64,000 nucleotides of DNA from an uncultured Gammaproteobacteria bacterium (GTDB lineage Bacteria > Patescibacteriota > Microgenomatia > Levybacterales > UBA12049): positions 121,420-185,419 of the forward strand of contig CAZFYA010000001.1 in NCBI GenBank assembly GCA_964523705.1, read 5' to 3'. The notes below the pieces were generated by a model. That model did no database searches, was not told the DNA's origin, and saw nothing but the letters and a program-made list of their open reading frames with translations. Of this stretch, positions 28,734 to 61,275 are shown piece after piece. Positions within the stretch are counted from its first letter, which is position 1. Every line of letters starts with the position of its first letter. The translations under genes and the position numbers were made by a program.

Positions 28734-28886
28734 AGAAAGATTATACGACTTTAATAGGAAAATTTATATAGTAATTTTACGTGGTTATGCCTTGAGAATG
28801 CGGGAATATCCTGTGTGCTCCTAATTCCTAACCTCTAAAAGACTAAAAACACCTAATTGAAATATAGACTTTTTTAAAACAAGGAA

Positions 28887-29444: not shown

Positions 29445-29480
29445 AAATTAATAGAACTACAAATATATTAAGAAGTCAAG

Positions 29481-29548
29481 CTTAAAATCCAAATATTTCG
29501 AGGGCTTTGTAGATAAAAGGGCTGGCCAGACTATTGCTTTAAGAGTTC
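29481..29548. repeat. direct repeat copy 1 (~68 bp); decayed duplicate of the 3' end of gene 31622-31873
   Basis: cttaaaatccaaatatttcgagggctttgtagataaaagggctggccagactattgctttaagagttc, against copy 2 at 31621-31689. Confidence 0.8.
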
Positions 29549-30312: not shown

Positions 30313-30336
30313 TGCAATTGCGTATTATACAACAAG

Positions 30337-31542
30337 TTATAAGTTTATTCTTGTTTGCTCGGAGTTAAAATAAGAATTTTTTTTATATACCTTATTAAAA
30401 TAAACGTAATTAATTAATTTATACGAAAAGTCAAAGCTTATTCTTTTTCTATTATTGTCTCTAAAATTAGTCAAGAAAAAAGATAAATGTTCACTTCTTG
30501 CCTTGTTTAATTCATTATTAAAATAGTCAATAATCTTTCGTTGTGTTTGTATATCTAAATCTTTTTTGAACAGCAAATAGGCCATGTTTCGTGAAGTTTG
30601 TTTTCCTACTAATCCTGAAACTTCATATTTTCTGATGTCCTCAAGCATAATCTTATCTTTATTTTTTGTATCAATGGCCTTTAACAGAATTATATTCTTG
30701 CTTATTCTTTTAAATAAACTATCGTCTATTGTGTATTCATTAACCTCTTTTACGTGATTATAGGCTAATTTTATTTTATATTTTCCTTTTTTAAGCATGT
30801 CTTCTGTTAGTCTATAAATTCCAAGTATGTTTTTAACTTTTGAGATCTTATTATCAAACTCGCCACCCATTCTCCATCCATATTTTTTTTCTAGTTTTAA
30901 TTTAATTTCCTTTTTTTCTGGAAAAATCAATGCATCTATTTCATTTGTCTCGCTATCATCTTTTTTCAATTTATAATAAAAAGATATTACATTATATGTT
31001 GTATCCTCAAAAACTTTTTCATAAAAAATATTTAATTTTTCTATTTTAAATTTTTTAAAAAATAAATCTCTAATTTTCTTCGAATTTTTAGCAGACAAAA
31101 AATTTAGTGGCACTATCATAATTCCCTCTTCTGAATCAAGAACTGAATTTATAGAAACTTGGTATAAATCTTCAAAGCTACTGTTTAAGCCGGAAAAATA
31201 ATCAATTTTTGTTTTTTGGGAAGCTTTATTTTTGTGAAGATATGGCGGATTAGTTAATAAAAATTTGTATTTCTTAGGATATTTAATTCCATCATTTAAA
31301 AATACCTCTTTGTTATCAACTAAATTTTTAGCTATTTCGTATCCAACTATTGAAGAAGCACCATGTTTTTTTGCCCATTTTATTAGATCTCTATTTCCAG
31401 CAAAAGGATCTACTACTATTTTTCCCTTAATAAACTTACCTAAGCCAAATAAAACATAATCTGATTTTTTTGTAAAAAACTGACCTAATTGTCTTTTTTC
31501 ATCTTTTTTAAAATATGATTCTTTTAAGGCCTGTTTTTTCAT
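30337..31542 (-). CDS. N6-adenine DNA methyltransferase, gamma class
   Basis: Motif I VVDPFAGNRDL (about aa 45) then motif IV LLTNPPY (about aa 98), with a long C-terminal target-recognition region. Confidence 0.8.
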   Translation of the reverse strand: MKKQALKESYFKKDEKRQLGQFFTKKSDYVLFGLGKFIKGKIVVDPFAGNRDLIKWAKKHGASSIVGYEIAKNLVDNKEVFLNDGIKYPKKYKFLLTNPPYLHKNKASQKTKIDYFSGLNSSFEDLYQVSINSVLDSEEGIMIVPLNFLSAKNSKKIRDLFFKKFKIEKLNIFYEKVFEDTTYNVISFYYKLKKDDSETNEIDALIFPEKKEIKLKLEKKYGWRMGGEFDNKISKVKNILGIYRLTEDMLKKGKYKIKLAYNHVKEVNEYTIDDSLFKRISKNIILLKAIDTKNKDKIMLEDIRKYEVSGLVGKQTSRNMAYLLFKKDLDIQTQRKIIDYFNNELNKARSEHLSFFLTNFRDNNRKRISFDFSYKLINYVYFNKVYKKNSYFNSEQTRINL

Positions 31543-33648: not shown

Positions 33649-36078
33649 ATGAAACTTCCGTTTTCAAAAATGTTTGAAAAAAAAGAAAAGCCAGAGTTTT
33701 ATTTAGCGTTTTTACTTCGCCATGAAAAAGCAATTGCTGTAATCTTTGAACAGACAGGAACAGCAGCTAAAGTTGTTGGTGAGGGGGAAGCATCTTTTGA
33801 AAAAAATATTGAAGAGGCTACTTTTGAAGAACTACTTAGTGTTTCAGATAAAGCAATTTCAAAAGCAGAGGAGAATGTTCCGGAAGACAGTAGTACTTTA
33901 AAAACACTCTTTGGTTTAAAAGAAGGTTGGATAGCAGAAGATAAGATAAAAAAAGAGTATCTTGAAAGACTTAAAAAAATTAGTGACGAATTAGGCCTTT
34001 CTCCAATTGGCTTTATAACTATAACTGAGGCAATTACTGACTTTTTAAAAAAAGAAGAAGGAATTCCCCTATCTGCAATTTTAGCTGAAGTTGGAAAAGC
34101 TTATGTTTCAGTATCTTTGGTTAAGGCCGGGAAAATTTTAGAGACAAAATCATCTGAAATTCATGAAAACCCTGCCTTTACCACTGATGTACTTCTTAAA
34201 CATTTAGAAATACCAGATGTACTCCCATCAAAAGTAATTTTATACAACGGAGAAGATGAAGACTTATCGCAAAAATTTATCCATCATAAATGGAGCAAAG
34301 CTCTTCCCTTTTTACATCTCCCACAAATTATTTCTCTTCCTAAAGGCTTTGATGCCAAAGCAATCTTGCAGGGTGCAGCAAGCAAGATGGGTTTTGAAAT
34401 AATATCTGAAGGTCCTCTTAAAAGTACAGAAGAAAAAGAGGAACTTCCCTCTTTTGAAAAAATGGAATATAAAGATGAAGCATCTCCTAAAAAAGACGAA
34501 GAAGAAAAAAAAGAAGAGAGTGAGGAAAAAGAAGAGGAGAAAGAAGGAGAAGAGAAAGAGGAAGAAATAAACTTTGTTGAAAATGAAGATTCAATTGAAA
34601 AATTCGGCTTTATTGAAAATGAAGACGTAGTAAACATACCTCCTGCTAAAAAGGGACTTGAAAAAGAGGAAGAAGAAAAAGAAAAGGAAGAATTAAAAGA
34701 AGAAGACAAGGATAAAAAAGAAGAACAAAAAGAAAGTAAAGAAGAATTAAAAATCCACCAAGCTCCCCTAACCGCAGTTGAGCAACATGATGAAGAAGAT
34801 GAAGAAGAATATGGTATTGAAAGAAAAAGAGGAAAAAATATTTTTACAAAAATACTTACTGTTATTCCTCTTTTCTTTTCCTCTATTTTTAAAAAATTAA
34901 GACTTCCCGGAAATAAAGGAGCACTACTTTTGTTAAGAAATAAATTTATTGCAATTCCCCTTTTAGTAATCCTTGCCATTATTGCAGTTTATGTAATTTC
35001 TTTCTTCACTTTAAAAACAGAAGTAGTTTTAACGTTAAATCCAAAACTTGAGGAGGAAAAACAAGATGTTACTTTTTCAGCAGAAACAACAGACGTTGAT
35101 GAAAAAATAATTTTTGGTAAGTTTATTGAAGCCTCTCTTAAAGATTCAGTCTCAACCTCAACAACCGGTAAAAAAGAAACCGGAGAAAAAGCAAAAGGAG
35201 AAGTAACTTTTTTCAGTCGTTTTACTTCTAAAAAAACAATTGCTAAGGGAACTGTACTTACTTCATCAAATGATATTGATTTTACTCTTGATGAAGATGT
35301 TTCAGTTGCATCTTCATCTGCTGATGCCAGTGAAGACCCGGCAACTGCTAAGGGAAAAGTAACTGCTAAAAATATTGGTAAGGAAAGTAATCTTCCATCA
35401 GGTGCTAAATTTTCAGTTGGCAATTTATCCCCGGGAGATATTATTGCCAAAAACGAAAGTGCATTTTCAGGCGGAACTAAAAAAGAAATAACCGTAGTAG
35501 CAGAAGAAGACAGTGAAAAACTACTAACAGAAATTGTTGAAAAACTGAAAGAAGAGGCATTAGAAGAATTAACTAAAAAAATTAATAGCGAAAAAGAGGT
35601 TTTACTTCCGGTTGTAATTTCATCTGAAGTTGATGAAGAAAACTTTGATAAGGAAGTTGGAGATGAGTCTTCAAAGCTTAATCTTGAAGCAACGGTTCTT
35701 TTTCAGGGACTATCCTATTCAAAAGAAGATTTATTATCTTTTACCAAATCTCTTCTTGATAAAGAGCTTTTAGGAAAAATGGAAATAGATGAAAAAAACA
35801 TTAAAGTGGATGTTGAAGACATTAAAGAAAAAGATGAAGATAGCGACACTGTTTCTGCAACTTTAAAGATTAAAGCTCCTCTTTTACCAAGTCTTAAAAA
35901 AGAAGAACTTGCTAAAAACATCAGCGGTAAATCAAAAGAAGAAGCAAAAAATATGCTTTTAGACATTTCTCAAGTTGTTGATGTAGATATTAATCCTTCT
36001 CTTCCTCTTCCGTTTCTAACCAACTATCTGCCCAAGTTTTCCAATAATATAGAAATTGTCACCAAAGTTAATGAGTAA
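33649..36078 (+). CDS. large bitopic membrane protein: cytoplasmic domain with possible actin-like (PilM/FtsA-like) fold, E/K-rich low-complexity linker, one TM helix, ~370-aa extracytoplasmic domain
   Basis: 809 aa. N-terminal segments (AIAVIFEQTGTAAKVVGEG; LSPIGFITITEAITD...LAEVGKAYVSVSLVKAGKI) resemble the phosphate-1 and phosphate-2 regions of PilM/FtsA. TM helix IAIPLLVILAIIAVYVISFF. Starts 6 nt after alaS and overlaps the sortase gene by 23 nt. Confidence 0.4.
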   Translation: MKLPFSKMFEKKEKPEFYLAFLLRHEKAIAVIFEQTGTAAKVVGEGEASFEKNIEEATFEELLSVSDKAISKAEENVPEDSSTLKTLFGLKEGWIAEDKIKKEYLERLKKISDELGLSPIGFITITEAITDFLKKEEGIPLSAILAEVGKAYVSVSLVKAGKILETKSSEIHENPAFTTDVLLKHLEIPDVLPSKVILYNGEDEDLSQKFIHHKWSKALPFLHLPQIISLPKGFDAKAILQGAASKMGFEIISEGPLKSTEEKEELPSFEKMEYKDEASPKKDEEEKKEESEEKEEEKEGEEKEEEINFVENEDSIEKFGFIENEDVVNIPPAKKGLEKEEEEKEKEELKEEDKDKKEEQKESKEELKIHQAPLTAVEQHDEEDEEEYGIERKRGKNIFTKILTVIPLFFSSIFKKLRLPGNKGALLLLRNKFIAIPLLVILAIIAVYVISFFTLKTEVVLTLNPKLEEEKQDVTFSAETTDVDEKIIFGKFIEASLKDSVSTSTTGKKETGEKAKGEVTFFSRFTSKKTIAKGTVLTSSNDIDFTLDEDVSVASSSADASEDPATAKGKVTAKNIGKESNLPSGAKFSVGNLSPGDIIAKNESAFSGGTKKEITVVAEEDSEKLLTEIVEKLKEEALEELTKKINSEKEVLLPVVISSEVDEENFDKEVGDESSKLNLEATVLFQGLSYSKEDLLSFTKSLLDKELLGKMEIDEKNIKVDVEDIKEKDEDSDTVSATLKIKAPLLPSLKKEELAKNISGKSKEEAKNMLLDISQVVDVDINPSLPLPFLTNYLPKFSNNIEIVTKVNE

Positions 36079-36808
36079 AAAATACTACCGAAAGCAAAGG
36101 TTTTTTAAAAAAGGTATTAATGTTTTTAAAACATTAAGTGTTTTAATAGTACTTCTTGGCATTTTTATTTTAATTTATGTATTTTTCCCTTTTATTTCCT
36201 GGCAAATATATTTTGCCCCTGTTTTTGCAAGCCAAAACATTGCCTCACCAATTCCTAAGGTAAATATTGTGAGCAATCAAACAATTAACAGTTTATTAAC
36301 TGAAGCATCACATAATTTAACCGGCGTTAATTATCAAAATGCTCAAAACTGGTTTCCAACCTATAATCCAAATATTAAAGATGATGAGCGAAAAATTGAT
36401 AGTTATACAATTTCTATTCCAAAGCTTAATTTAAAAGATTTAGTAGTTTCAACTAATGATTATGACTTAAGTAAGCACTTGGTAAATTATCAGGGAACAG
36501 CAATTCCACCAAGTAAAGGGAATGCCGTTATTTTTGGACATTCAACTCTTCCCCAGTTATATAATCCAAAAGATTATAAAACAGTTTTTGCCAATGCCTA
36601 TAAATTAGAAGTTGGAGATGAAATTAAAGTAACAGTTGAAAACATAACCTACAGTTATAAAATTATTAATACCATTGTTACAGACCCTGAGGATACTTCA
36701 ATTTTTGAGCAAAACTATTCTGATAGTTATTTAAGCTTAGTTACCTGTACGCCACCCGGAACAACCTGGAAAAGATTAATTATTAAAGCAATGATACAAA
36801 AATTATGA
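36056..36808 (+). CDS. sortase family transpeptidase (sortase 1)
   Basis: N-terminal TM anchor; catalytic His (NAVIFGHST), Cys (LSLVTCTPPG, the TLxTC motif) and Arg (WKRLIIKA). Confidence 0.85.
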   Translation: MSPKLMSKKYYRKQRFFKKGINVFKTLSVLIVLLGIFILIYVFFPFISWQIYFAPVFASQNIASPIPKVNIVSNQTINSLLTEASHNLTGVNYQNAQNWFPTYNPNIKDDERKIDSYTISIPKLNLKDLVVSTNDYDLSKHLVNYQGTAIPPSKGNAVIFGHSTLPQLYNPKDYKTVFANAYKLEVGDEIKVTVENITYSYKIINTIVTDPEDTSIFEQNYSDSYLSLVTCTPPGTTWKRLIIKAMIQKL

Positions 36809-36951: not shown

Positions 36952-38226
36952 ATGACCCAAGAAGCTTTAGCGCTAAGCGCAATTAGAAAAAAATTAATTG
37001 GTAAAAGACTAAATTATAAGGAAATTTTTGCCATTATGGATGAAATGGCACATGAAAGGCTTAGTCCTGTTTTAACTACCTATTTTGCAGCTTCAGGTTA
37101 TTCAAAAGGCTTTACCAGTAAAGAACTATACTATTTAACTAAAGCCATGGTTGAAACAGGAGAAAAACTTGATTTTAAAGGAATTGTTGCTGATAAACAT
37201 TCAATTGGCGGAGTCCCAGGAACCAGAACAACTCTAATTGTAGTTCCAATTGTTGCCGCTGCCGGATTTAAAATTCCTAAAAGTTCATCAAGAGCAATTA
37301 CAACACCAGGTGGAACAGCTGATGACATGGAGGTTTTAGCACCGGTTGAATTAACAATTGAAAAAATCTACAAAATTGTTAGAAAAACCAATGGCTGTAT
37401 TGTCTGGGGAGGAAGTTTTAATTTAGCTCCGGCAGATGATATTTTAATCAGGGTTGAAAAACCGCTTCTTTTTGAAAGCTATGATAAGATTTTAGTTTCA
37501 ATAATGGCAAAAAAAATTGCCTTTGGTTCAAACCATGTAGTAATTGATCTTCCCTATGGAGACATGGTAAAGGTAGAAAATTTAAAAGACGCTGAAATCT
37601 TAAAAGATAGATTTATGGATCTTGCCAAAAGATTTAAGATAAAAATAAAAGTATTAATCCACAAAACCGATCAGCCGGCAGGACGAGGAATTGGACCGAT
37701 TTTAGAAGTAAAAGAATCACTTAAGGTTTTACAGCAGAAAAAAGATAGGCCCCTAGATTTAGAAATTAGAAGCATTAATCTTGCCGGATCACTTTTAGAC
37801 CTTTGCTTAAAAGACGCTCCTAAAAAAACCCAAGTTGATGTTAAGAAAAAATACGGAAATGGTTTTGGTTTTGCAACCGAACTTTTAAAAAGCGGTAAGG
37901 CTTTTAAAAAATTTGAAGAGATTGTTAAAGCCCAGGGAGGAAAAAAAGCGGTTGATGCTGAAAAATTAAAACCTGGGAAACACCTTTTTCATATTAAAGC
38001 ACAAAAAAAAGGAATAATAAAAAGAATTAATAGTAAAAACATTACCTATATTGTTAAAATCTTAGGTGCTCCTACTCAAAAAGGGGCAGGAATTTACTTA
38101 AATAAAAAAATTGGTGAAAAAGTTGAAAAAGGAGAAATAGTCTATACAATATACAGTGAAAGCATGTATAATCTTAAAGAAGGAAAAGAGTCTGTCAAAA
38201 ACTTTCCTGTTGAGACAATAGAATGA
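36952..38226 (+). CDS. thymidine phosphorylase / AMP phosphorylase family protein
   Basis: 424 aa; DKHSIGGVPGTRTTLIVVPIVAAAG and TTPGGTADDMEVL match the DeoA-family phosphate and nucleoside-binding motifs. SD AAGGAGGA 7 nt upstream. Confidence 0.75.
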   Translation: MTQEALALSAIRKKLIGKRLNYKEIFAIMDEMAHERLSPVLTTYFAASGYSKGFTSKELYYLTKAMVETGEKLDFKGIVADKHSIGGVPGTRTTLIVVPIVAAAGFKIPKSSSRAITTPGGTADDMEVLAPVELTIEKIYKIVRKTNGCIVWGGSFNLAPADDILIRVEKPLLFESYDKILVSIMAKKIAFGSNHVVIDLPYGDMVKVENLKDAEILKDRFMDLAKRFKIKIKVLIHKTDQPAGRGIGPILEVKESLKVLQQKKDRPLDLEIRSINLAGSLLDLCLKDAPKKTQVDVKKKYGNGFGFATELLKSGKAFKKFEEIVKAQGGKKAVDAEKLKPGKHLFHIKAQKKGIIKRINSKNITYIVKILGAPTQKGAGIYLNKKIGEKVEKGEIVYTIYSESMYNLKEGKESVKNFPVETIE

Positions 38227-39182
38227 AGAGAATTTTAATTTTAATTGTATTAATAGCAGTTATTGCCGGAGGACTTGCTTCTTGGTGGAGAAACGGATTA
38301 GCTTCTGTTAATAAACAAGATAATACCGCAAAAATCTTTGTCATCGAAAAAGGAGCAGGTTTAAGGGAAATTGCTAATAATTTAAAAACAGAGGGTTTAA
38401 TAAGAGATGCCACTGTTTTTTTTCTTCTTACCAAGCAATTAAATTACGATAAAAAAATTGAAGCCGGCTCATTTAGGCTTAATCCCTCTATGACAACTGA
38501 AGAGATTATAAAAGCTCTAACTCATGGAACTTTAGATATTTGGGTTACAATTCCTGAGGGTAAAAGAGCAGATGAAATTGCTGATATATTTAAAGAAACT
38601 CTTCCTACCTTTGATGAATCATGGAGAACATCTCTTAAGGCAAAAGAGGGTTATTTATTTCCGGACACTTACCTTTTTGCCAGGGAATCAACTATTGATC
38701 AAATAATTGAAAAAATGACAGAAAACTTTGAAGTAAAATACCAGGAGCTTTCAGGACCAAGCCTTAAAAGCTTTACCAAAGATGAAATAGTTACTATTGC
38801 CTCTATGGTTGAGCGGGAGGCAAGACATGATAGCGATAGAGCTTTAGTTGCTTCAGTTATCTTAAACCGCTTAGAAATTGGCATGGCTCTTCAAATAGAT
38901 GCTACTGTTCAATATGCACTTGGATTTCAGGAAGATGAAAACAGATGGTGGAAAAAAAGCTTAACCTCAACTGATTTAAAACTTAATTCCCCATATAATA
39001 CATATAAAAATGCCGGGCTTCCTCCAACACCAATTGCAAATCCCGGGTTTTTAGCGCTTGAAGCGGTTGTAAATCCAGCAAACACTAATTACCTCTATTA
39101 TCTTTCAGATAAAGATGGTAATAATCATTACGCAGAAACTCTTGAGGAACATAACGCCAACAGGCAAAAATACGGAATTTAA
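38223..39182 (+). CDS. mltG: endolytic murein transglycosylase MltG (YceG-like)
   Basis: N-terminal TM, then YceG motifs (YLFPDTYLF, MVEREAR, NSPYNTYKNAGLPPTPIANPG). Confidence 0.85.
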   Translation: MKRILILIVLIAVIAGGLASWWRNGLASVNKQDNTAKIFVIEKGAGLREIANNLKTEGLIRDATVFFLLTKQLNYDKKIEAGSFRLNPSMTTEEIIKALTHGTLDIWVTIPEGKRADEIADIFKETLPTFDESWRTSLKAKEGYLFPDTYLFARESTIDQIIEKMTENFEVKYQELSGPSLKSFTKDEIVTIASMVEREARHDSDRALVASVILNRLEIGMALQIDATVQYALGFQEDENRWWKKSLTSTDLKLNSPYNTYKNAGLPPTPIANPGFLALEAVVNPANTNYLYYLSDKDGNNHYAETLEEHNANRQKYGI

Positions 39183-52831: not shown

Positions 52832-55800
52832 TTAAGCTTCTTTATTTTTATCTTTTTTCCTTCTGAAGAAAAGTAAATATAACAAAGCTACTACAACAAT
52901 TGCGATAATTATTATTAACCATCTATAAAATGTATTTTGCCAAATAGATGAGTCTGTATCCGTAGCTTCACCTAAAACATCTTTTCCTGCTTCATTAATT
53001 GTTTCATTATTTATTTCATTTTCTTCTGTTTCAGATTCTAAATCCTTATCTTCCTCTTGCGTTTCAACTCCTAATACTTCTCCGCCGCCAAGTCCTCCAT
53101 ATGCTAAGGTTGAAACTCCAAGCACAGCTGGTGAGACAGCTGAAGGACCTCCTGTTGACCCACCATCAGATTTACCATCACTTCCTCCATCTGATAAACC
53201 ATCTCCCGGAAGACCAAAAATATAATGCGGAGTAAATGACAGTTCTTTTCCTATTGCTTCAGGAGAACCATGAGAAATTGGTCTGAAATAATATGTTGTT
53301 CCAACAGTTAAACCCGTAACAGTAACACTGTGTGAAGTTACTTTTGCAGAATCCTCACTCGTTGAATAGGCATAACCAAAGTTTGGAGAAGTTCCAAGAG
53401 TAGGATGAGACACAGTGTCATAAACTACTCTACTTGTAGATGGATCATCTGTGCTCCAGGTAATTATTGCAATAGTATCATCAACCCTTGATTGTGTTTC
53501 TCCAAAAATAACCGGAGGAACTCCATAATGAGCACTTAAAACAGTGCTTGCATTTCCAAGCTTATCATAAGCAATGGCTTTAAGCGTTAAATCATGATCA
53601 ATAGTAATAGCGCCTGTATGTTCTGTTTTTGTATTATCTGGTTCTGTTCCATCAAGAGTATAATAGATTTTATCCAAACCACTTCCAGCATCTGAACTTG
53701 ATAAAGTAACTATTTGATCACTATCGTAATCTCCTGCGCCAGGACTTGCAGTCGGCTCAACCGGCTCAGTGTTATCAACTTCAACTGTTTTTGTTTCTAA
53801 GGATCTAATCCAATTTCCGCCCGTTTTATCTCTTGCTGCAACTTTAATATACATTATTCCATCATTCCATGATGAAGGAACAGTATAACTTACCTCATAA
53901 ATATCTCCTGTTGTATGAGACATGCTGACAGATGTTGGGCTTGGTCTGTTTGTATAAGAAGCATTATATGAGAAATCAGCTGAAACAGCAGTTATTCCTG
54001 ATGCATCTGTTACGTCTGCGTTAATTACAATTACATCTCCTGCTTTTACAAAAGCTTTATCTACGTTTAAATTAGTAATTGTCGGCGATGTCCAATCAGA
54101 AGTATATTTACAACTATTATTAAAGCCTTGAGCTCCTCCGCTCCATTCTGATTTATTTCCTGCTTTATCAACAGCTCTTACTTGAACACCATAGGTTCCT
54201 TCTATTGGCACTGTCCACCATGATGCATTAAAATATGCTGTAGTAAACTCCCTAATAGGACCTGTGCTTCCATCAGCGTTATAAGAAATATACTCATAAT
54301 GATGAAAATCGGGCTCCGTGTTTTCATCCCAGTAAACATCAAAATTCCTAGCAGATGTTAAACCGCCGCAATAGATATTCTTATTATTTTTTGTATCCTT
54401 AAAATAAATGCCTGTTGGTGTGCTCGGAGGAGTATTATTAATTGTAACTTTAATAACATGTTGAGAATCATCTCCTCCTGTGTATTCTTTTCCAGCTACT
54501 AAATCTCTATTTCCAGCCTTATCTCTTGCAGCTAAACGAATTAGATATTTTCCATCCTCTTCTGTAGTTGAATCCCAGTTAAATATTAACTCATTATTAA
54601 TATTTGAAGTGAGGTAAACAGTAGATTGGGCTATTCTTTTACTGAAATCATTAAAATCAGCATCGCCTGGATATACAGAGATATTATAATGACTTAAAAG
54701 ATAGTCATCTAATACGGTGCCATATATTTTAACCTCACCAGATACAACATCATCTTTGTTTGGACTTTCAATAGTTACTAATGGAGCTTTTGTATCATTT
54801 AGAGTAAACTCACTAGTTTCTCTAATAGGCGTATCTTCTGCGCTTTCTGTTGGATTAAAAATGAAACAATAATCACCAGGAATCCAAGAAGAAGTATCTG
54901 CTGAAGCATGGAAAGCATATCCATCCCAATCATAAGCATCATGCTTACCATCTACATTTCCAAATACAGTATTTGTACCAGCAGTACATGTTCCTTTTCT
55001 AACTGCCCATTGAATATTATCATCGCCATCTTTATCAACTAATGTAGCATCAAAAGAAACAGTTCCTGAAACATTGGTTCCTGCTAAAGGAGAAGTTATT
55101 GTAGCGCTCCTTTCAAATGGTGCAGGTAAAACATCAAATCTTGTCCAATCAAATCTTTCGTCTCTTTCAGCACCAAATACCATACGAACTTCAACATACT
55201 CATTAGCAGGAATAGTTAATATCTCATTGCTATTATTTTCGCAAACATAAGGATATAAACCGTCAGTTATATCAGTATTATAATTGACGCCTCCATTTTC
55301 GCTAAGCACCTGACTTGTATCTCCATCAGTCCTATATTCGAAACAACTATAAAAACCTCTTGTACTTATAAACTGTAAATCGGTTGTTCCTACTCCTTGA
55401 CTAAGTTGGTCAACATGAGCCCAGCTATTTGTTCTGTTTATATCATTTGTACTTGGTGTAACTGCATTAACACCTGTTGATGAACTAGTTACAACATTGT
55501 CAGTAATAATAAATATAGTAAGATGGTCAAGGTTTGATACGGAAACTGAAGTGTCTGTTTTCGTAAGATTATTTTCTACTTTTTTAGCTTCTTCTATTTT
55601 TGAAAGTTCTTCTGCAAATTTTACTTCAACTTCTTTTCCTCTTGAGGATTCAGGAATAGGAAGAGACAAGGCGTAGTTAAACTCTCCATCTTTCATGTCC
55701 GAAGTTATATCATACGCCTTATCTGATAAAGCACCTGTTTTTTCTATTTGTTCTTCTGTAAGCGTTATTTCTTCAATCTTTATATTTCCAGCAGGATCTG

Positions 55801-56155
55801 GAAGTTTTGTAAAAATTATTTTTACGCCGCTATTTTGAGGTGCCACATATTCTTTGTTTAATTCTACTTTTTCAAAAGTCCATTGTGAAAGAGGCTGAGA
55901 TGATTGAGGCTCTAAACTAATTGTTGGTTCTACAATTTCATTGTTTACAATTTCCGGTGTTGGGGTAATTGTTAACTCCGGAATTGTAGTTGTGGTACTT
56001 GTAGTTGTTTCTTCTAAAATAGGGGTTTCTGTTGGTGTTAAATCTTCTGCATAAGCAAGGTTTTTAGACAAAAAAGAAAAAGGGGAAAGCGATTGGACAA
56101 GAATCGCTCCTATGGAAAAATATGTAAATAATTTCTTTAGTATTTTTTTCTTCAC
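52832..56155 (-). CDS. large secreted surface protein (FN3/Ig-like beta-domains) with C-terminal GDGLSDGxSDG-VLGxxT-TM-basic module; GTG start
   Basis: 1107 aa; signal peptide (...SKNLAYA/ED); FN3-like segments; C-terminus ...GLPGDGLSDGGSDGKSDGGS...AVLGVST...EVLGVET...DVLGEAT...WLIIIIAIVVVALLYLLFFRRKKDKNKEA. Confidence 0.6.
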   Translation of the reverse strand: MKKKILKKLFTYFSIGAILVQSLSPFSFLSKNLAYAEDLTPTETPILEETTTSTTTTIPELTITPTPEIVNNEIVEPTISLEPQSSQPLSQWTFEKVELNKEYVAPQNSGVKIIFTKLPDPAGNIKIEEITLTEEQIEKTGALSDKAYDITSDMKDGEFNYALSLPIPESSRGKEVEVKFAEELSKIEEAKKVENNLTKTDTSVSVSNLDHLTIFIITDNVVTSSSTGVNAVTPSTNDINRTNSWAHVDQLSQGVGTTDLQFISTRGFYSCFEYRTDGDTSQVLSENGGVNYNTDITDGLYPYVCENNSNEILTIPANEYVEVRMVFGAERDERFDWTRFDVLPAPFERSATITSPLAGTNVSGTVSFDATLVDKDGDDNIQWAVRKGTCTAGTNTVFGNVDGKHDAYDWDGYAFHASADTSSWIPGDYCFIFNPTESAEDTPIRETSEFTLNDTKAPLVTIESPNKDDVVSGEVKIYGTVLDDYLLSHYNISVYPGDADFNDFSKRIAQSTVYLTSNINNELIFNWDSTTEEDGKYLIRLAARDKAGNRDLVAGKEYTGGDDSQHVIKVTINNTPPSTPTGIYFKDTKNNKNIYCGGLTSARNFDVYWDENTEPDFHHYEYISYNADGSTGPIREFTTAYFNASWWTVPIEGTYGVQVRAVDKAGNKSEWSGGAQGFNNSCKYTSDWTSPTITNLNVDKAFVKAGDVIVINADVTDASGITAVSADFSYNASYTNRPSPTSVSMSHTTGDIYEVSYTVPSSWNDGIMYIKVAARDKTGGNWIRSLETKTVEVDNTEPVEPTASPGAGDYDSDQIVTLSSSDAGSGLDKIYYTLDGTEPDNTKTEHTGAITIDHDLTLKAIAYDKLGNASTVLSAHYGVPPVIFGETQSRVDDTIAIITWSTDDPSTSRVVYDTVSHPTLGTSPNFGYAYSTSEDSAKVTSHSVTVTGLTVGTTYYFRPISHGSPEAIGKELSFTPHYIFGLPGDGLSDGGSDGKSDGGSTGGPSAVSPAVLGVSTLAYGGLGGGEVLGVETQEEDKDLESETEENEINNETINEAGKDVLGEATDTDSSIWQNTFYRWLIIIIAIVVVALLYLLFFRRKKDKNKEA

Positions 56156-56206
56156 AAAGTACTTACAAATACAATAATATTTGTATAGCTAAATACACTT
56201 GGCTGG

Positions 56207-56235
56207 ATAGTAGCACTCGTCCTATAAAAAGTCAA
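56207..56235 (-). promoter_or_regulatory. candidate promoter for the 1107-aa gene (-35 TTGACT, 17 bp, -10 TACTAT)
   Basis: Minus-strand read: ttgact ttttataggacgagtgc tactat. The leader contains an AT-rich hairpin (tacaaata/tatttgta). Confidence 0.35.
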
Positions 56236-56274
56236 TATACCTCTTCTATATAAAACTGGCAAGTAAAAAAACAA

Positions 56275-58395
56275 TTATAGAAGAAACATTTTTAGCGCTG
56301 TTAACCTAGCCATTAAAGGTATTCCACGAGTGAAAATTTGTCTAATTTTTTCCTTTTGTCTTAAAATTCTAAGCAAGATATAAAGTTCAAGAAGAATTAA
56401 AAAGGCAAAAAACGCTGCCATACTATTTGCTCCTCCTGTTATTCCTCTTGTATTTGTTGATGCACCCAAAACCGGTGGAATATCCTTAGTTTTTTCTCCT
56501 AAAACCTCCTCAATTGGTGCGTAGACACCAAATACTTTAAATGTACTGTCAGCAAAGGATGAAACATCATCCTCTTCTTCTCCGGCTTTTCCTATGGCAT
56601 AAGCTCTGGCTATATATTGTCCACCTGGAGTATTAGGTGATAGGACAAGTCCTGTTGATACTTTTACCATTTTCCCTGGTTCTATTACTCCTAAATCAAA
56701 CTCTGTTCCACCAACATTTACACCATCTTTAATTAAAAACAATGCTAATTTTGATTCATAAACTTTACCAGTTCCTGTATTTTTAATTTTTACAAAGAAA
56801 GTTACCGTATCGCCTGGTAACACATATTCTCCAACATTGTTTGTCTGTTCAACCTCAAGTTTTCCACCATTTTCTCTTAAATATGAATTATCCAAGCTAT
56901 TACCAGCTAGAATATTTTCATCTTTCTTTGTTTGATTATCTTCATTATTATTATCAGTGTTATCTTCAACCGCAAGTGCTTCAAATTCTGCTTTTCCACC
57001 AATGTCTCCGTTTAATCTTCCAAAAATATTAATAAAGCCAAAAAAACCAATTGAATTAATAATATTGGTGTTTATAAAATTAAGTATAGAAACCGTACTA
57101 TACGCATTACCTGTTTTAATATTTGAATCATCCCCATTAATTAAATTTCCACCAGTGTTTGCCGAAGATAAAATGTTGTTTGAGACAATTGCATTGTTCT
57201 TAAGATACATGTCTCCAGTGCACAAATCACAATCTTCATTTCCTGATCCCGCTGTTACATAATTTATGTCTAATGATCCTCCTCCTAATTGAGGACCAAT
57301 TGCTCCCCAGCCAATAAAGTCTCCGTTCCACTCACCATAAGTATTAATGTATAAAGTTTGTATCCCAACTCCTAAATAATTTGAATTAACTATGTTTAAA
57401 TTATCAACTAAACTTCCTGCATCTCCTGTTTCAATACTTGCGCTTCCTGAAGCAGTGACAATTGTGTTTTCCCCAGTATTAGCTTCTGATTTAACATTAT
57501 TCTCAACTACTGCGTTATTGTCAGCGAGGATTGAAACGCCACATGTATCACAAGTGGTATCTTCTGTTTGAATATTAGGTAAAATTATGTCTCCATTAAT
57601 ATCTCCGTAGATATTTATCATTACTACGTGAACCACTGAATTAATAGTAATAAAATTAACTTTATTTAAAAGAAGTGTTGTGGCGTAAGCATCTCCTGTA
57701 TCAATACTGGCACTTCCTGAAGCAGTGGTAATACTGTTTTCTCCGCTTTGAGCTGTTGTAATAATGTCATTTGAAACATAAGCAAAATTACTAATCCCGG
57801 TTGCCTTAACTGTAATTATTTCTTCATTTGGTTTTTCGCTTAATGCTTTAGTTGCAATTGCGATTGGATCTGATAAGTCAACATCTCCTTCTTGATCGTA
57901 AATGATATTAATTATCTGATATTCAACCTCTGAATTTATAGATGTTGAATTAACATCGTTTTCAACAACAGTAGTAGAAACAGCGTCTCCTGTTTCAATG
58001 GAATTTGAATCTTCATCTTCATTGTTTTCTTCATTCTCTTCTTCTTGTTGACAAGTTGAATTAACGCTTGCAGATTCCGTTGCCGTAGCTGTATCTAATT
58101 CTGGTGTTGGAGTTGGGGAAGCTGAAGTAGAACTTAAATCAGCTACTTTATCTGCTTCAGTTGTTGGAGTTGGTGTTGGTTCAGTAATTTCATTTTCTCC
58201 TGTGTTTGAATCTGTAACAACAGTTGTTTCTACTACTGTAGAATTATCAATTTCTGTTTGTGTCTCAACCGGGGTTGGGGTTGGATCAACAATTTCTTCT
58301 TCATCAGCAAAAATAGCTACAGGTTGTAAAACGTAGACTAATAAAAGACTTGTTATTAACAACTTTGCCAATGTTTTTTTAGTTTTTTCAATCAT
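56275..58395 (-). CDS. secreted repeat protein (three ~95-aa CxxC-ANTGxN-TGxA repeats) with C-terminal VLGxxT-TM-basic module
   Basis: 706 aa; signal peptide (AIFA/DEEE); the three repeats are quoted in the findings; C-terminus EEVLGEKTKDIPPVLGASTNTRG...MAAFFAFLILLELYILLRILRQKEK. Confidence 0.6.
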   Translation of the reverse strand: MIEKTKKTLAKLLITSLLLVYVLQPVAIFADEEEIVDPTPTPVETQTEIDNSTVVETTVVTDSNTGENEITEPTPTPTTEADKVADLSSTSASPTPTPELDTATATESASVNSTCQQEEENEENNEDEDSNSIETGDAVSTTVVENDVNSTSINSEVEYQIINIIYDQEGDVDLSDPIAIATKALSEKPNEEIITVKATGISNFAYVSNDIITTAQSGENSITTASGSASIDTGDAYATTLLLNKVNFITINSVVHVVMINIYGDINGDIILPNIQTEDTTCDTCGVSILADNNAVVENNVKSEANTGENTIVTASGSASIETGDAGSLVDNLNIVNSNYLGVGIQTLYINTYGEWNGDFIGWGAIGPQLGGGSLDINYVTAGSGNEDCDLCTGDMYLKNNAIVSNNILSSANTGGNLINGDDSNIKTGNAYSTVSILNFINTNIINSIGFFGFINIFGRLNGDIGGKAEFEALAVEDNTDNNNEDNQTKKDENILAGNSLDNSYLRENGGKLEVEQTNNVGEYVLPGDTVTFFVKIKNTGTGKVYESKLALFLIKDGVNVGGTEFDLGVIEPGKMVKVSTGLVLSPNTPGGQYIARAYAIGKAGEEEDDVSSFADSTFKVFGVYAPIEEVLGEKTKDIPPVLGASTNTRGITGGANSMAAFFAFLILLELYILLRILRQKEKIRQIFTRGIPLMARLTALKMFLL

Positions 58396-58454
58396 ACCTA
58401 CATCCTTTCTTCTGCCCCAGGGAGAGTCCTGAAATTAGAAACCCTCCCCAGGAC

Positions 58455-58483
58455 AAAAAGAAAAAAACAGACTTATTAGTCTG
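58455..58483 (-). terminator. intrinsic terminator (cagacu-aaua-agucug + U-run) overlapping the stop codon of gene 58476-58970
   Basis: Minus-strand read: cagactaataagtctg tttttttcttttt. Confidence 0.55.
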
Positions 58484-58970
58484 CTGTTCCACCTAAAATA
58501 TTTGTGTTAACAACACTTGTTACATATGAACCAGCTGTTGCTGCTCCTGTTGTAAGAGCGCTGCCACCAACACATTTACCGGAAACTTTGTTAATACCGG
58601 TGTTTGCTAAACTACCTGTTAAGTTTAGAACTGTTCCAGAGTTTTTAATAGTTTCTCTTGATCCTCCAAAACAGGTATTACATTGTATATTTGTGTAGTT
58701 AGCCTGTGTTGTAACCTCAGATGTTGCTCTTGCTGCTCCTGTTGTAAGAGCTCCGCCGCTAACATATTTACCAGAAACTTTGTTAACACCGGTATTTGCA
58801 ACTGTTAAGGTTAAATTACCAACAAATGCATGGTTATCAATATATGTTGACCCACTTTGTTGTGGCATAGGAGGCATAAAACAACCACCGCCAATACATT
58901 GAGCGTTTGCTGGTAGGGCAAATGCCAATGCTAAAGCTAATGTTATTCCTCCAAATAAAAGTTTTTTCAT
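58476..58970 (-). CDS. small secreted protein with two ANTG(V/I)NKVSGK...ALTTGAA repeats
   Basis: 164 aa; signal peptide (ALPANA/QC); internal tandem ~45-aa repeat. Perfect SD AGGAGGTGA 7 nt upstream. Confidence 0.6.
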   Translation of the reverse strand: MKKLLFGGITLALALAFALPANAQCIGGGCFMPPMPQQSGSTYIDNHAFVGNLTLTVANTGVNKVSGKYVSGGALTTGAARATSEVTTQANYTNIQCNTCFGGSRETIKNSGTVLNLTGSLANTGINKVSGKCVGGSALTTGAATAGSYVTSVVNTNILGGTAD

Positions 58971-59092
58971 TTATTTTTCACCTCCTCTCGTTATAAGCTT
59001 ATAACTAAAAAAACCGACGCGCGTCTAGTTTACACATCGGTTTTCTAAAAGAAATATAAAAAAATATATTTTTCTCCATATGCCTAAGGAAC

Positions 59093-59124
59093 AAAAAAAG
59101 CGCTCCGCCTTATTTGGCGAGCGC
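59093..59124 (-). terminator. strong GC-rich intrinsic terminator (ggcgcucgcc-aaauaa-ggcggagcgc + U7) ending the DUF2292-like transcript
   Basis: Minus-strand read: ggaggcgctcgccaaataaggcggagcgc ttttttt; a GC island in AT-rich context. Confidence 0.7.
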
Positions 59125-59195
59125 CTCCGTTAACGGCCAGCGTTAATTTATGATACATTTTTAAACTTTTTAACTTAACCTGTCAATAAGTCAAA

Positions 59196-59366
59196 CTATA
59201 TCTTTCTTACGCTGTTTGGTTTTTTAATATTTTTCTCTGTAATTTGAGTTACACAATGGTTTTGAATAAAAACCTCAATACTTCCCCAACCGTCAATTTT
59301 TTTTATCGATTCTGAAAGTTCTTTTAGAAGACCGTCTGAAATATTTTTAGTAGAGTATTTATTCAT
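59196..59366 (-). CDS. DUF2292/YezD-like small protein (56 aa)
   Basis: Below the ORF-track cutoff. Translation: MNKYSTKNISDGLLKELSESIKKIDGWGSIEVFIQNHCVTQITEKNIKKPNSVRKI. The core ...GWGSIEVFIQNHCVTQITEK... resembles the DUF2292 G-S-V-x-hhhxDGK-V-x-I motif. Confidence 0.55.
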   Translation of the reverse strand: MNKYSTKNISDGLLKELSESIKKIDGWGSIEVFIQNHCVTQITEKNIKKPNSVRKI

Positions 59367-59370
59367 TTTT

Positions 59371-59404
59371 AGAGGCAGGTTTTAGAGGCAGGTTTTAGAG
59401 GCAG
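59371..59404. repeat. 2.6 tandem copies of a 13-bp unit (agaggcaggtttt) in the 5' leader of the DUF2292-like gene
   Basis: Read directly from the sequence. Confidence 0.8.
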
Positions 59405-59422
59405 CTGTTTCTTACACCGCTA

Positions 59423-59451
59423 TATATAGTACAAACAAAATACTTTGTCAA
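59423..59451 (-). promoter_or_regulatory. promoter for the DUF2292-like gene (-35 TTGACA overlapping the upstream gene's stop codon, 17 bp, -10 TATATA)
   Basis: Minus-strand read: ttgaca aagtattttgtttgtac tatata. Confidence 0.45.
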
Positions 59452-59816
59452 TACTGGTTAAAAAAATTAAGACTATCTAATAAGTTTATAATCCAGTTTT
59501 TAAAATTTTCCACTATTAAATTTATCCCTTGTTTTTCTTTTTTAACATCTTCCTCTTCTTTTTTTGGGGTTATTGTTGCAGAAGGGGTAACTTCTTTATT
59601 CGAGTTAACTTCAACCTTATGCACTCCCGGTTCTGTAGTTTCTAAAATCTCCTTTTCTCCATTTGCTTCTACTTCAATTTTTGTATATACATCTCCCCCT
59701 GAAACATTTGTTTCAACTATTGCTTCTGCTTTTGCATCTCCTGTTTGAATAGTTTGAGCAAAAGCAGGATTAGCTAAAAAAAGAAAAGCAAAAAGGACTA
59801 AAAATTTTTTTATCAT
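59448..59816 (-). CDS. small secreted protein (TGDA motif; related to repeats of the neighbouring proteins)
   Basis: 122 aa; signal peptide (ANPAFA/QT); QTGDAKAEAIVETNVSGGDV. Confidence 0.5.
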   Translation of the reverse strand: MIKKFLVLFAFLFLANPAFAQTIQTGDAKAEAIVETNVSGGDVYTKIEVEANGEKEILETTEPGVHKVEVNSNKEVTPSATITPKKEEEDVKKEKQGINLIVENFKNWIINLLDSLNFFNQY

Positions 59817-60391
59817 TATTTATTAATAGGTATTGCAGTTACTATTAATCGTTTTTCATCAAAAAAACCTGTACAAGTATAAAGAGTTAATGTTTCGGTC
59901 TTTGTTGGCTGAATTACTTCTTTTTGATTAGGGAAAACCTCTGTTATTTTATTTACTCTATATTGATACCATTTATCTTTTGTTAAAACATAAATTAAAT
60001 CTTTTTCTTTTACATCTTTTAAATTATGAAAAAATCCTTCTTTTGCATGAGCAAAAATAACAATGTTTCCATTCTCCCCTGGATATCCACTACCAAGTCC
60101 ATAGGACGCAGTTTTTTCGGAAAGTTCCCAATAACCATTTACTATTTTTGATTCAGTAATTGGTAAATCAATATCTACTTTTGGAATAATAATTCTAATT
60201 GGGGTATTTTCACTTTTTTTATTTGAATAAAGGCTTGAATCAACTTGAATTGGGCTTTTGCTTTCTTTTTCAGGGGAAAATTTTGGATAACCTGTTAGAA
60301 GTGTAAAAGCAAGAACAATGAAAATAAGGGCAATAACTTTATTAAGAATATTTTTTCTTTCTTTGGAGATTTTTTTCTTTTTGCGGGGCAT
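59816..60391 (-). CDS. sortase family transpeptidase (sortase 2)
   Basis: N-terminal TM anchor; catalytic His (NIVIFAHAKEG), Cys (LTLYTCTG) and Arg (KRLIVTA). Confidence 0.8.
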   Translation of the reverse strand: MPRKKKKISKERKNILNKVIALIFIVLAFTLLTGYPKFSPEKESKSPIQVDSSLYSNKKSENTPIRIIIPKVDIDLPITESKIVNGYWELSEKTASYGLGSGYPGENGNIVIFAHAKEGFFHNLKDVKEKDLIYVLTKDKWYQYRVNKITEVFPNQKEVIQPTKTETLTLYTCTGFFDEKRLIVTAIPINK

Positions 60392-60402
60392 GATTTATTA
60401 TT

Positions 60403-61275
60403 TTAAGCGCTTTTTTTATAAAACGCTAATCCAAACATACTTAAAACAAATGAACCAAATATTTGAGCAAGTTTTACTAATTCATTTTCACCACTGGTTG
60501 TTGAAAGACCTAAAACTGCTTTAGTTGGACCAGTTGATGCACCTAAAACTTGCCCTCCTCCAATACCTGATGCTTGTGTACATTCCGGGCAACTTGATCC
60601 TCCATCACTTCTACCATCTGATAACCCATCTCCATGACCAGCCGGTGGAACAATGGGAGTTGGAGTTAAAGTAACAGTTGGACAAGCTTGTTCATTGCAA
60701 GTTTGTGGTTCAGTCGGACAACTTAATCCTCCATTCTCTGCAGGAACATCAACTATTACTGGCTGAGTGCCACCGCCACAAGCTACAGAACAATCACCAT
60801 AGTGATATACGCAGTCTATTGGAGTCGGTGGAGTATCTTTGCAATCTGTTGGACAACTCCATTCACCACAATCTCTTACATCGCATCCATCAGTTTCAAA
60901 ATCGCAGCTATATTCTTTTTTACAATAATCCCATTTTGTAACAAAACATTTATCATCCTTTGGGTCTGGTCCTTTTAAGCAGGATTCGCAACTCCAGGTA
61001 GTAGTTTCGCAGCATTCCCCATTGCAAGGTGTTGTCGTTGTAGTAGTTGATGTGCTTCTCTCACATTTTCCATTTTCTGAAGATGGATTATATGGAACGC
61101 AAGTTAGACCTGGACAACATGGCTTATCACTTTCATTTACAGTACATTCTGCGTTTTCGTGTTTACAATCGTCGTCAGCCGTAGCAGTATTGTGAAAATT
61201 AAATAAATCGCTTCCGCCAATTAGAAGAACTGTCAATAATAGTGTGGATAAAAATAATGTAATTTTTGTCTTCAT
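60403..61275 (-). CDS. Cys-rich secreted protein with thrombospondin-type-1-like repeat and C-terminal GDGLSDGxSDG-VLGxxT-TM-basic module
   Basis: 290 aa; signal peptide; about 36 Cys residues; ...WSCPTDC...CSVACGGGTQPVIVDVPAENGGLSCPTEPQTCNEQAC; C-terminus ...PAGHGDGLSDGRSDGGS...QVLGASTGPTKAVLGLST...TM...YKKSA. Confidence 0.6.
   Translation of the reverse strand: MKTKITLFLSTLLLTVLLIGGSDLFNFHNTATADDDCKHENAECTVNESDKPCCPGLTCVPYNPSSENGKCERSTSTTTTTTPCNGECCETTTWSCESCLKGPDPKDDKCFVTKWDYCKKEYSCDFETDGCDVRDCGEWSCPTDCKDTPPTPIDCVYHYGDCSVACGGGTQPVIVDVPAENGGLSCPTEPQTCNEQACPTVTLTPTPIVPPAGHGDGLSDGRSDGGSSCPECTQASGIGGGQVLGASTGPTKAVLGLSTTSGENELVKLAQIFGSFVLSMFGLAFYKKSA

Follow-up and report, generated by a model that had tools for sequence, protein, structure and literature searches.

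A C-terminal module paired with an adjacent sortase as a candidate sorting system in a Microgenomates surface-protein locus

Results

The stretch of DNA analysed here (64 kb in full, from contig CAZFYA010000001.1, and referred to throughout as the window) carries on its minus strand a group of genes for a membrane-anchored sortase, three exported proteins of 1107, 706 and 290 amino acids and several small proteins (Table 1), which we read as a probable conserved surface-protein locus of Microgenomates, that is, of Levybacteria-like bacteria of the candidate phyla radiation (CPR), centred on a dedicated sortase. The order of genes in Levybacteria is tail gene (290-type), sortase, p122, a small DUF2292-like open reading frame (ORF), p164 and a 706-type gene, with the 1107-type gene placed before or after this block. 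The window is AT-rich (~33% G+C) and encodes ribosomal, RNA-polymerase and translation genes, as is typical for a small CPR genome, while the presence of a YceG/MltG gene (288 bits) indicates that the organism has a peptidoglycan wall. For comparison, loci were fetched from other genomes and metagenomes (numbered L001, L002 and so on) and individual proteins were looked up (P0002–P0006).

Table 1 Features of the surface-protein locus and other window features discussed in the text (positions in the window).
Feature	Positions	Strand	Description
290-aa secreted protein	60403-61275	-	Signal peptide, Cys-rich passenger domain, Thr/Pro linker, candidate C-terminal sorting module
290-aa protein, upstream module part	60595-60633	-	GDGLSDGRSDGGS; followed by CPEC loop at 60580-60591
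290-aa protein, upstream VLGAST copy	60532-60549	-	QVLGASTGP; found in most family members
290-aa protein, terminal motif	60487-60516	-	VLG-LSTTS-GE; VLG..T copy at 60499-60516; LSTTS (60493-60507) is the proposed LPXTG equivalent
290-aa protein, C-terminal helix and basic end	60406-60480	-	Predicted transmembrane helix LVKLAQIFGSFVLSMFGLAF (AlphaFold2 helix), basic YKKSA at the extreme C-terminus
Sortase	59816-60391	-	191 aa, membrane-anchored (transmembrane helix 60287-60349); unclassified Microgenomates subfamily
p122	59448-59816	-	122-aa secreted protein directly downstream of the sortase; mature N-terminus Q-T-I-Q-TGDA
56-aa small protein	59196-59366	-	Lacks a signal peptide; resembles DUF2292/YezD; between the p122 and p164 genes
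p164	58476-58970	-	164-aa secreted protein; two ANTG.N.V.G...TG.A repeat units
706-aa exported protein	56275-58395	-	Four to five NTGEN...I.TGDA repeat units; C-terminal tail
706-aa tail		-	VLGEKT 56488-56505; VLGAST 56455-56472; transmembrane helix 56362-56421; basic RQKEKIRQ; cytoplasmic end RLTALKMFLL 56278-56307
1107-aa adhesin-like surface protein	52832-56155	-	Ig-like, Fn3-associated and CHB_HEX_C domains (Pfam)
1107-aa tail		-	GDGLSDGGSDGKSDGGS 53156-53206; VLGxxT 53108-53125, 53060-53077, 52961-52978; transmembrane helix 52865-52921; RRKKDKNKEA 52835-52864
YceG/MltG gene	38223-39182
Second sortase	36056-36808	+	250 aa, motif LVTCTPPGTTWKRL; clade other than the first sortase
809-aa protein	33649-36078	+	Gene end overlapped by the second sortase gene
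G+C dip	28077-31542	-	G+C 0.275-0.30

The initial annotation of this DNA had pointed to a C-terminal layout common to the three exported proteins (VLGxxT motif, hydrophobic helix, basic tail) and had proposed VLGxxT as a lineage-specific sorting signal processed by the two sortases of the window. All three minus-strand ORFs were confirmed, each with a signal-peptide-like N-terminus, a C-terminal hydrophobic stretch and a Lys/Arg-rich tail, and signal peptide, C-terminal transmembrane (TM) helix and basic tail are combined in no other window protein. The 706-aa protein differs from the described layout in one respect, as it continues for ~20 conserved cytoplasmic residues past its basic stretch (...RLTALKMFLL). 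Both sortase genes are genuine (PF04203, 86.4 bits for the first and 74.5 bits for the second). A Gly/Asp/Ser stretch said to be shared by two of the proteins was likewise found, GDGLSDG(G/R)SDG being common to the 1107-aa and 290-aa proteins with 29 of 32 nucleotides identical.

The seven VLG..T copies described in the three tails proved, in a six-frame scan, to be the only in-gene matches of the window, and all of them lie within the last 97 residues of their proteins. From amino acid composition 0.54 matches would be expected in the window genes, and none of 2000 within-protein shuffles reached seven (maximum 4). Codons vary between the copies, which places conservation and selection at the level of the peptide; a DNA-level repeat or recombination cassette as the source of the similarity was ruled out for this reason.

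The 290-aa protein ends in a conserved module that occurs strictly at C-termini and is attached to many different passengers. Word-index homologue searches fit such a short module poorly (six matches with the tail sequence, four with a tail alignment), and 1.84 billion cluster representatives were therefore searched with a profile of the 290-aa tail and a few relatives from the word search, which gave 121 representatives at E ≤ 1e-3, 65 of them at E ≤ 1e-10. Whether such matches are always C-terminal had been put forward as a check on the proposed signal, and in all 121 the match ends 0–33 residues from the C-terminus. The proteins are 100–489 aa long and nearly all begin with a signal-peptide-like segment, a few being N-terminally truncated, while their passenger domains are unrelated (Fn3, TSP1 or TSP1-like, Cys-rich, small TGDA); the passenger domain of the 290-aa protein has no homologue in any fetched locus, so that the passenger is evidently the variable part.

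The order of elements in the module is a Thr/Pro-rich linker, GPGDG(R/K/L)SDG, a Cys loop (CPxC or CxxHDC), QVLGASTGP, xVLG-L-S-x-T-S-G-E/D, about 20 hydrophobic residues and a consensus end FFKKNA, with the GPGDG(R/K/L)SDG and Cys-loop elements kept across the family and two VLG copies present in 71 of 122 tails. An AlphaFold2 (AF2) model of the 290-aa protein, built on the family alignment and informative for the C-terminal helix and a small N-terminal beta domain only, has a helix at residues 265–289 with a predicted local distance difference test (pLDDT) score of 74–94, whereas residues 213–259, which hold the motifs, are without predicted structure; the GDGxSDG/CPEC region, at pLDDT <50, is predicted to be unstructured. 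No Pfam or NCBIfam model covers this module, in agreement with the initial statement that the motif is none of the named ones: scans of whole window proteins, isolated tails and 104 family members returned no tail model, only matches to low-complexity linkers and to TM segments.

Alignment of the 122 tails separates two things that had been merged under VLGxxT, namely a terminal copy with its conserved Thr at +4 and an upstream VLGAST with Thr at +3. After the last VLG, which lies 34–58 aa from the C-terminus (median 38), the residues are Leu (109 tails), Ser (113), a variable position (T84, A13, S11, Y8), Thr (108), Ser (93; Gly 10, Ala 10) and Gly (93; Ser 23), followed by Glu or Asp. Positions 1, 2, 4 and 5 are therefore constrained and position 3 is free, directly before the TM helix (four residues ahead of the AF2-predicted helix in the 290-aa protein), which is the pattern of an LPXTG-like signal. 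In 11 representatives VLGAST is instead followed by MAGTG, FAGTG, LAATG, YAATG, YAKTG or LASTG, which resemble LAXTG, and the family variants LPTTSGE and LSTTGGE would bridge the LSxT(S/G) and LPXTG patterns. Because only position 3 is free, Thr is near-invariant at position 4 and LAXTG-like relatives exist, the likely cleavage motif is LSxT(S/G) rather than VLGxxT. In the 290-aa protein the scissile bond would lie between T260 and S261.

Module and adjacent sortase subfamily are genetically tied to each other, whichever of the two is taken as the starting point, so that the co-occurrence which had been suggested as a further check was borne out. Starting from the sortase, a 23-sequence alignment led to 31 species-representative genome loci, 30 of them with upstream DNA; the tail gene lies directly upstream of the sortase in 23 of these 30 and visibly diverged versions of it in two more (L026 and L029), the loci lacking it being those with the most distant sortases. 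Starting from the tail, the pattern VLGLSTTSG retrieved 27 metagenome loci, and a sortase follows directly in 26, the remaining locus stopping 195 nt past the tail gene. A sortase is also found downstream of all seven variant tails that were looked up individually, and of P0004. The usual junction is an 8-nt overlap, AATGCCTAA, in which ...AAG AAT GCC TAA is read as ATG CCT AAA (for example L009 9866–9873), and this overlap accounts in part for the conservation of ...KKNA at the substrate end and of MPKK at the sortase start; the window itself is an exception, with an 11-nt spacer between the two genes (60392–60402).

Motif type follows sortase clade, as a specific relationship between enzyme and signal predicts. 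Sortases at least 50% identical to the core domain of the window enzyme pair with V(L/M/I)G-L(S/A/P)x(T/A)(S/G)(G/S)(E/D); at 27–41% identity to the window enzyme, the partner motif is VLGAST and then (M/L/F/Y)A.TG.

The adjacent sortase belongs to the sortase superfamily (PF04203, 86.4 bits against a cut-off of 26.6; TIGR01076, 55.5 against 39.35). It has a basic N-terminal segment followed by a TM helix (hydrophobic residues 15–35), and its catalytic set comprises His115, a TLYTC motif with Cys173, and Arg181; as all three residues are invariant in 23 homologues, the enzyme looks catalytically competent. Homologues number 533 at E ≤ 1e-10, the closest relatives occurring in metagenome-assembled genomes labelled Candidatus Levybacteria/Levyibacteriota and farther ones in Gottesmanbacteria and Amesbacteria (Microgenomates). 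Matches to profiles of structures in the PDB are weak (≤45 bits) and scattered over classes A, C and D.

The 1107-aa and 706-aa proteins are conserved members of the same locus and share the VLG stalk, the TM helix and the basic tail. Homologues of the 1107 type (L004–L006, L042, L044, L045, L056) keep the same order of module elements, GDGxSDG and three VLG copies, with a variable spacer of 14 to ~35 aa between the last VLG-like motif and the TM helix, followed by a conserved (N)W, the TM helix and a Lys/Arg tail. Homologues of the 706 type occur in at least 15 sortase loci; the closest (Levybacteria) keep VLG, TM helix, basic stretch and an RL..L[KR]MFLL end, a cytoplasmic segment of ~20 residues, whereas more distant ones are without VLG or the MFLL end, and some in Gottesmanbacteria/Amesbacteria have no VLG or have it at a long distance from the TM helix. 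A search for [LIVMFY][PAS]xT[GASN] in the last 70 residues of the 1107-aa and 706-aa proteins gave no match, the tail alignments of their homologues are likewise without the pentapeptide, and the isolated 1107 tail reaches 17.7 bits against TIGR01167 on its TM and basic part only. Since a conserved cytoplasmic end suggests that this segment is kept, the 706-type protein is probably a resident (type-I) membrane protein. The idea of a lineage-specific signal tied to the sortase is therefore supported for the 290-aa tail, whose module is C-terminal only and locked to the adjacent sortase subfamily, but not for the other two tails.

VLG..T is also frequent beyond the window: the fetched loci hold 41 matches in 156,000 residues against ~3 expected, and 33 of these lie within 100 residues of a C-terminus. 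VLGAST stands one or two residues upstream of canonical LPxTG signals (LPATG, LPDTG, LPSTG) in EVLGASTELPATGA (L019), SVLGAATSDLPDTGA (L022) and EVLGASTELPSTGAS (L062, L065), and before a canonical signal again in AVLGTASFAPTGNQ (L024). Occurrence at internal positions, which the initial annotation had named as evidence against its proposal, was found in part. Among eight internal matches, seven are in exported linkers of other envelope proteins, and the eighth is an internal match in the L019 surface protein with the LPATG end. Of the seven, four are in ~966-aa GT2-LysM-beta-helix membrane proteins (L004 5282–8188, L010 664–2934, L018 2208–5108, L021 2377–5265), where VLGxST lies ~38 aa past the last TM helix and directly before a LysM-like segment, two are in N-terminally anchored YkuD-like proteins just ahead of the catalytic domain (L031 101–826, L033 3133–3861) and one is in an Fn3/multi-TM protein (L005 14107–15099). 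In these exported linkers VLGxST is always at a domain boundary outside the membrane. A role as signal-peptidase-I site was ruled out, since in the internal cases 38–90 aa separate the motif from the nearest TM helix. Occurrence both upstream of LPxTG and in internal linkers, where cleavage by a sortase would anchor nothing, indicates a general punctuation motif of exported linkers and not the sorting signal itself.

Discussion

The best explanation of these data as a whole, to which we give a probability of about 0.6 (a joint figure that includes the reading of the region as a conserved Microgenomates locus centred on a dedicated sortase), is that the 290-aa protein is sorted by the adjacent sortase via VLG-LSxT(S/G)G, and that VLGxST is a separate linker motif. 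It draws on the observed motif statistics, the architecture of the tail, its restriction to C-termini, the gene pairing and the co-variation of motif and sortase. Cleavage, cleavage site and acceptor we infer by analogy with sortase A and from general knowledge of sortase mechanism. Exported through Sec via its N-terminal signal peptide, the 290-aa protein would stay in the membrane through the C-terminal helix and the KKxA tail and would present VLG-L-S-x-T-(S/G)-G-(E/D) a few residues outside it. The N-terminally anchored sortase would recognise VLG-LSxT(S/G)G, with Cys173 attacking the bond between Thr and Ser/Gly (T260 and S261), and the amine acceptor to which the passenger is then passed would most likely be a peptidoglycan precursor. 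LSxT(S/G) would then be a lineage-specific variant of LPXTG/LAXTG, and the invariant VLG that precedes it an added element for recognition or positioning.

Several points weigh against this explanation. Ser takes the place of the Pro of LPXTG in the pentapeptide and, mostly, that of its Gly as well, the Thr is absent in a few relatives (LSAAG, LAAAS), and VLG, the most invariant element of the module, has no role that is accounted for. Strict gene adjacency could also mean a non-catalytic partnership, and because the ...KKNA end overlaps the start codon of the sortase gene, part of its conservation is imposed by that gene. The sortase is under every NCBIfam cut-off for classes A–F and GN (NF033745–8, NF058671, TIGR03064, TIGR03784), and its AF2 model, made with 23 close homologues, is unusable (pLDDT 50), which makes reasoning from the substrate pocket impossible.

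That VLGxxT itself is a new sorting signature, cut by the cluster sortases in all three proteins as first proposed, would account for the confinement of the seven window copies to the three tails and for the invariance of VLG, which is kept in most 706- and 1107-type tails of other genomes although these are without the pentapeptide; the 330-aa protein of a sortase/SpaA locus, with VLGRQT, a TM helix and RKK, fits as well. Nevertheless, we consider this quite improbable, as a recognition signature should not stand just upstream of canonical LPATG, LPDTG and LPSTG and of LAXTG-like signals, nor in the internal linkers of GT2-LysM-beta-helix and YkuD-like proteins, which are anchored at their N-terminus. 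Its copy number varies from 1 to 3 and its distance to the TM helix from ~12 to 45 aa, the terminal copy has its conserved Thr at +4 and not at +3, and the conserved cytoplasmic tail of the 706 type is unexpected for a segment that is discarded after cleavage. The last of these observations agrees better with tails that are only a shared linker and membrane anchor, the proteins staying type-I and the sortase acting on other substrates or in a role other than transpeptidation. Such a reading also accommodates the lack of a literal LPXTG in the 290-aa protein, which has LSTTS(G) and matches neither TIGR01167 nor PF00746 (reached by 0 of 104 tail proteins), and CPR envelope proteins often have a C-terminal TM anchor, for example the Pam pilus chaperones (10.64898/2026.03.03.709456). 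For the 290 type, however, a 10-residue block VLGLSxTSGE at a fixed distance from the C-terminus and with LPXTG-like variability exceeds the needs of a plain anchor, as do the near-obligate overlap with a sortase gene and the co-variation of motif and sortase clade, and the window holds no other LPXTG candidate substrate, so that we regard an anchor alone as unlikely.

A further possibility is a pilus-like fibre polymerised by the sortase, with the tail protein as a pilin joined to the TGDA-motif proteins p122, p164 and p706 (the 706-aa protein) rather than to the wall. The order of tail gene, sortase and several small secreted proteins is conserved, some tail proteins share a Q-x-I-x-TGDA mature N-terminus with p122 and with the repeats of p706, and the related L062/L065 loci hold a SpaA-domain giant and a second sortase as well. 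Against it, Pfam gives no SpaA, pilin-motif or E-box match for the three window proteins, the module lacks a conserved Lys (the Lys of GDG(K/R)SDG was ruled out as pilin nucleophile, the variable residue of GDG(R/K/L)SDG being mostly Arg), the passenger is highly variable, unlike a shaft pilin, and p122 and p164 are without sorting signals. The sortase reaches 53.3 bits against the class C cut-off of 160. Polymerisation into a fibre is thus less likely than transfer to the wall, and we hold it to be very unlikely. The Pam pilus of CPR bacteria, a donor-strand-exchange system without a role for sortase (10.64898/2026.03.03.709456), is unrelated to the window system.

Transfer of the 290-aa protein by its own sortase can be compared with known systems. 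With class A sorting of LPXTG proteins (TIGR01167/PF00746; PF04203) it shares a signal peptide, a motif with Thr at position 4 and a free position 3, ~20 hydrophobic residues, a basic tail at the extreme C-terminus and a membrane-anchored sortase with a His/Cys/Arg triad. It differs in its L-S-x-T-S/G pentapeptide always preceded by an invariant VLG, in the extra upstream module (GDGxSDG, Cys loop, VLGAST), in a sortase under the class A cut-off and in the pairing, often with overlap, of one sortase gene with one substrate gene. LAXTG signals belong to the class E sortases of Actinobacteria (PMC5148588). The 290-type motif likewise has a small residue (Ala/Ser) in place of Pro at position 2, and module relatives carry literal LAATG, LASTG, YAATG and MAGTG at the same site, beside related sortases; the Levybacteria form, however, has Ser/Gly at P1' and then Gly, and the window sortase scores 53.6 bits against the class E cut-off of 160. 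To our knowledge, no VLG(AST) prefix has been described for class E substrates.

The 'marine' sortases of class GN recognise LP[QK]T[AS]T, and in the SrtB–IsdC pair the motif is NPQTN. As in these dedicated pairs, a specialised sortase is encoded beside its own substrate, with a non-canonical pentapeptide that tolerates Ser or Ala after Thr. The window enzyme is a member of neither class (30.6 bits against the 158-bit cut-off of TIGR03784 for GN, 9.5 bits for class B with TIGR03064), it comes from CPR, and its passenger is variable rather than one fixed protein. Scores for the remaining classes are also low (best 53–54 bits for C, D and E against cut-offs of 140–166; 37.4 for F). The general layout of short C-terminal signature, TM helix and basic cluster is that of the PEP-CTERM/exosortase, GlyGly-CTERM/rhombosortase, PGF-CTERM/archaeosortase and MYXO-CTERM systems (10.1101/2023.06.07.544157). 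The enzyme next to the tail gene is here a sortase, as judged from the neighbouring genes, and the named CTERM models matched the tails only below threshold and on the TM part (PEF-CTERM, 10.2 against 23 bits; Heimdall-CTERM, 13.7 against 24). The system thus appears to work like LPXTG/LAXTG sorting with a dedicated sortase, and by curated thresholds falls outside every named sortase class and CTERM domain. Sortase is reported to be near-ubiquitous in Microgenomates (PMC6744442), and our literature search found no description of this motif or of sortase substrates and recognition motifs in this group, other CPR papers touching on sortase only in passing.

If sorting occurs as proposed, the module is a searchable domain (VLG-LSxT[S/G]G, TM helix, KKNA) with a one-to-one sortase partner, an uncatalogued addition to the C-terminal sorting-signal families of Pfam and NCBIfam that would allow surface-displayed proteins of uncultured, probably host-attached bacteria to be predicted from sequence. 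Its partner would be a candidate sortase with non-LPXTG specificity, of use for protein ligation. That unrelated envelope proteins carry VLGxST in their exported linkers points to an envelope process that has so far gone unrecognised; the motif could be cut by a protease or during shedding, could be glycosylated or could act as a docking strand. We suggest, tentatively and as a doubtful extension, that a second, general Microgenomates envelope process acts on VLGx(S)T, through a shedding or maturation protease, a glycosylation enzyme or docking to sortases or wall polymers; the motif would then mark sortase substrates, canonical LPXTG giants, C-terminally anchored adhesins and N-terminally anchored L,D-transpeptidase-like and GT2-LysM-beta-helix proteins alike.

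Neighbouring genes and further observations

The small secreted proteins of the locus recur in other genomes. Homologues of p122 directly follow the sortase in L001, L003, L005, L009, L010, L014, L036, L040, L048–L050, L054 and L058, and p164, whose gene has an internal 134-nt repeat (D1), has homologues in L001, L005, L008, L013, L014, L034 and L050. The 56-aa protein reaches 19.9 bits against PF10055, under the 22-bit cut-off, and counterparts are again found between the p122 and p164 genes in L001 and L002. A repeat unit ..NTG.N.I..G.A..I.TGDA......N.VN.. is common to the 706-, 164- and 122-aa proteins, is mirrored by the nucleotide repeats D1–D3 and matches no Pfam or NCBIfam family. The mature start Q-x-I-x-TGDA is also seen on some tail-bearing candidate sortase substrates of other genomes.

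The second sortase of the window scores 64.9 bits with TIGR01076, does not reach any class cut-off, matches the first sortase at 35 bits and adjoins no candidate substrate within the window. Its relatives in L062 and L065 lie beside a ~2400-aa SpaA-domain protein ending VLGASTELPSTG. In these loci (L062 5097–8454, L065 1–7810), which come from another CPR lineage, the sortase is of the 'TCWPPGTT' type and the giant neighbour, a SpaA/SdrD_B protein, ends in EVLGASTELPSTGAS, a TM helix and KKGKRK; they also encode a 330-aa protein in which NVLGRQT is separated by 45 aa from a TM helix followed by RKK, and a first-type sortase with its tail gene directly adjoins the genes of the giant and the 330-aa protein. 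In the window, the second sortase gene overlaps the end of the gene for an 809-aa protein, whose single TM helix separates a cytoplasmic N-terminal part from an extracellular part with a Baseplate_J-like match (31 bits); the protein also has an acidic low-complexity region.

The upstream part of the tail module has a counterpart in small secreted proteins (P0006 and P0003, also P0002 and P0005) that carry a PPAGHGDGLSDGRSDG stretch and the Cys loop, end in ...GAPATGKGL or ...GAPNTGRGK and have no TM helix. Genes of this kind lie at L068 3545–4000, L069 475–861 and L070 500–886, in phage-like neighbourhoods (HNH and nuclease-like genes) with no sortase among them. Elsewhere in the window, a dip in G+C (0.275–0.30) coincides with genes that, judged by reading their sequences, are restriction-modification- or defence-like, among them a 401-aa protein with an NPPY methyltransferase motif and small nuclease-like ORFs.

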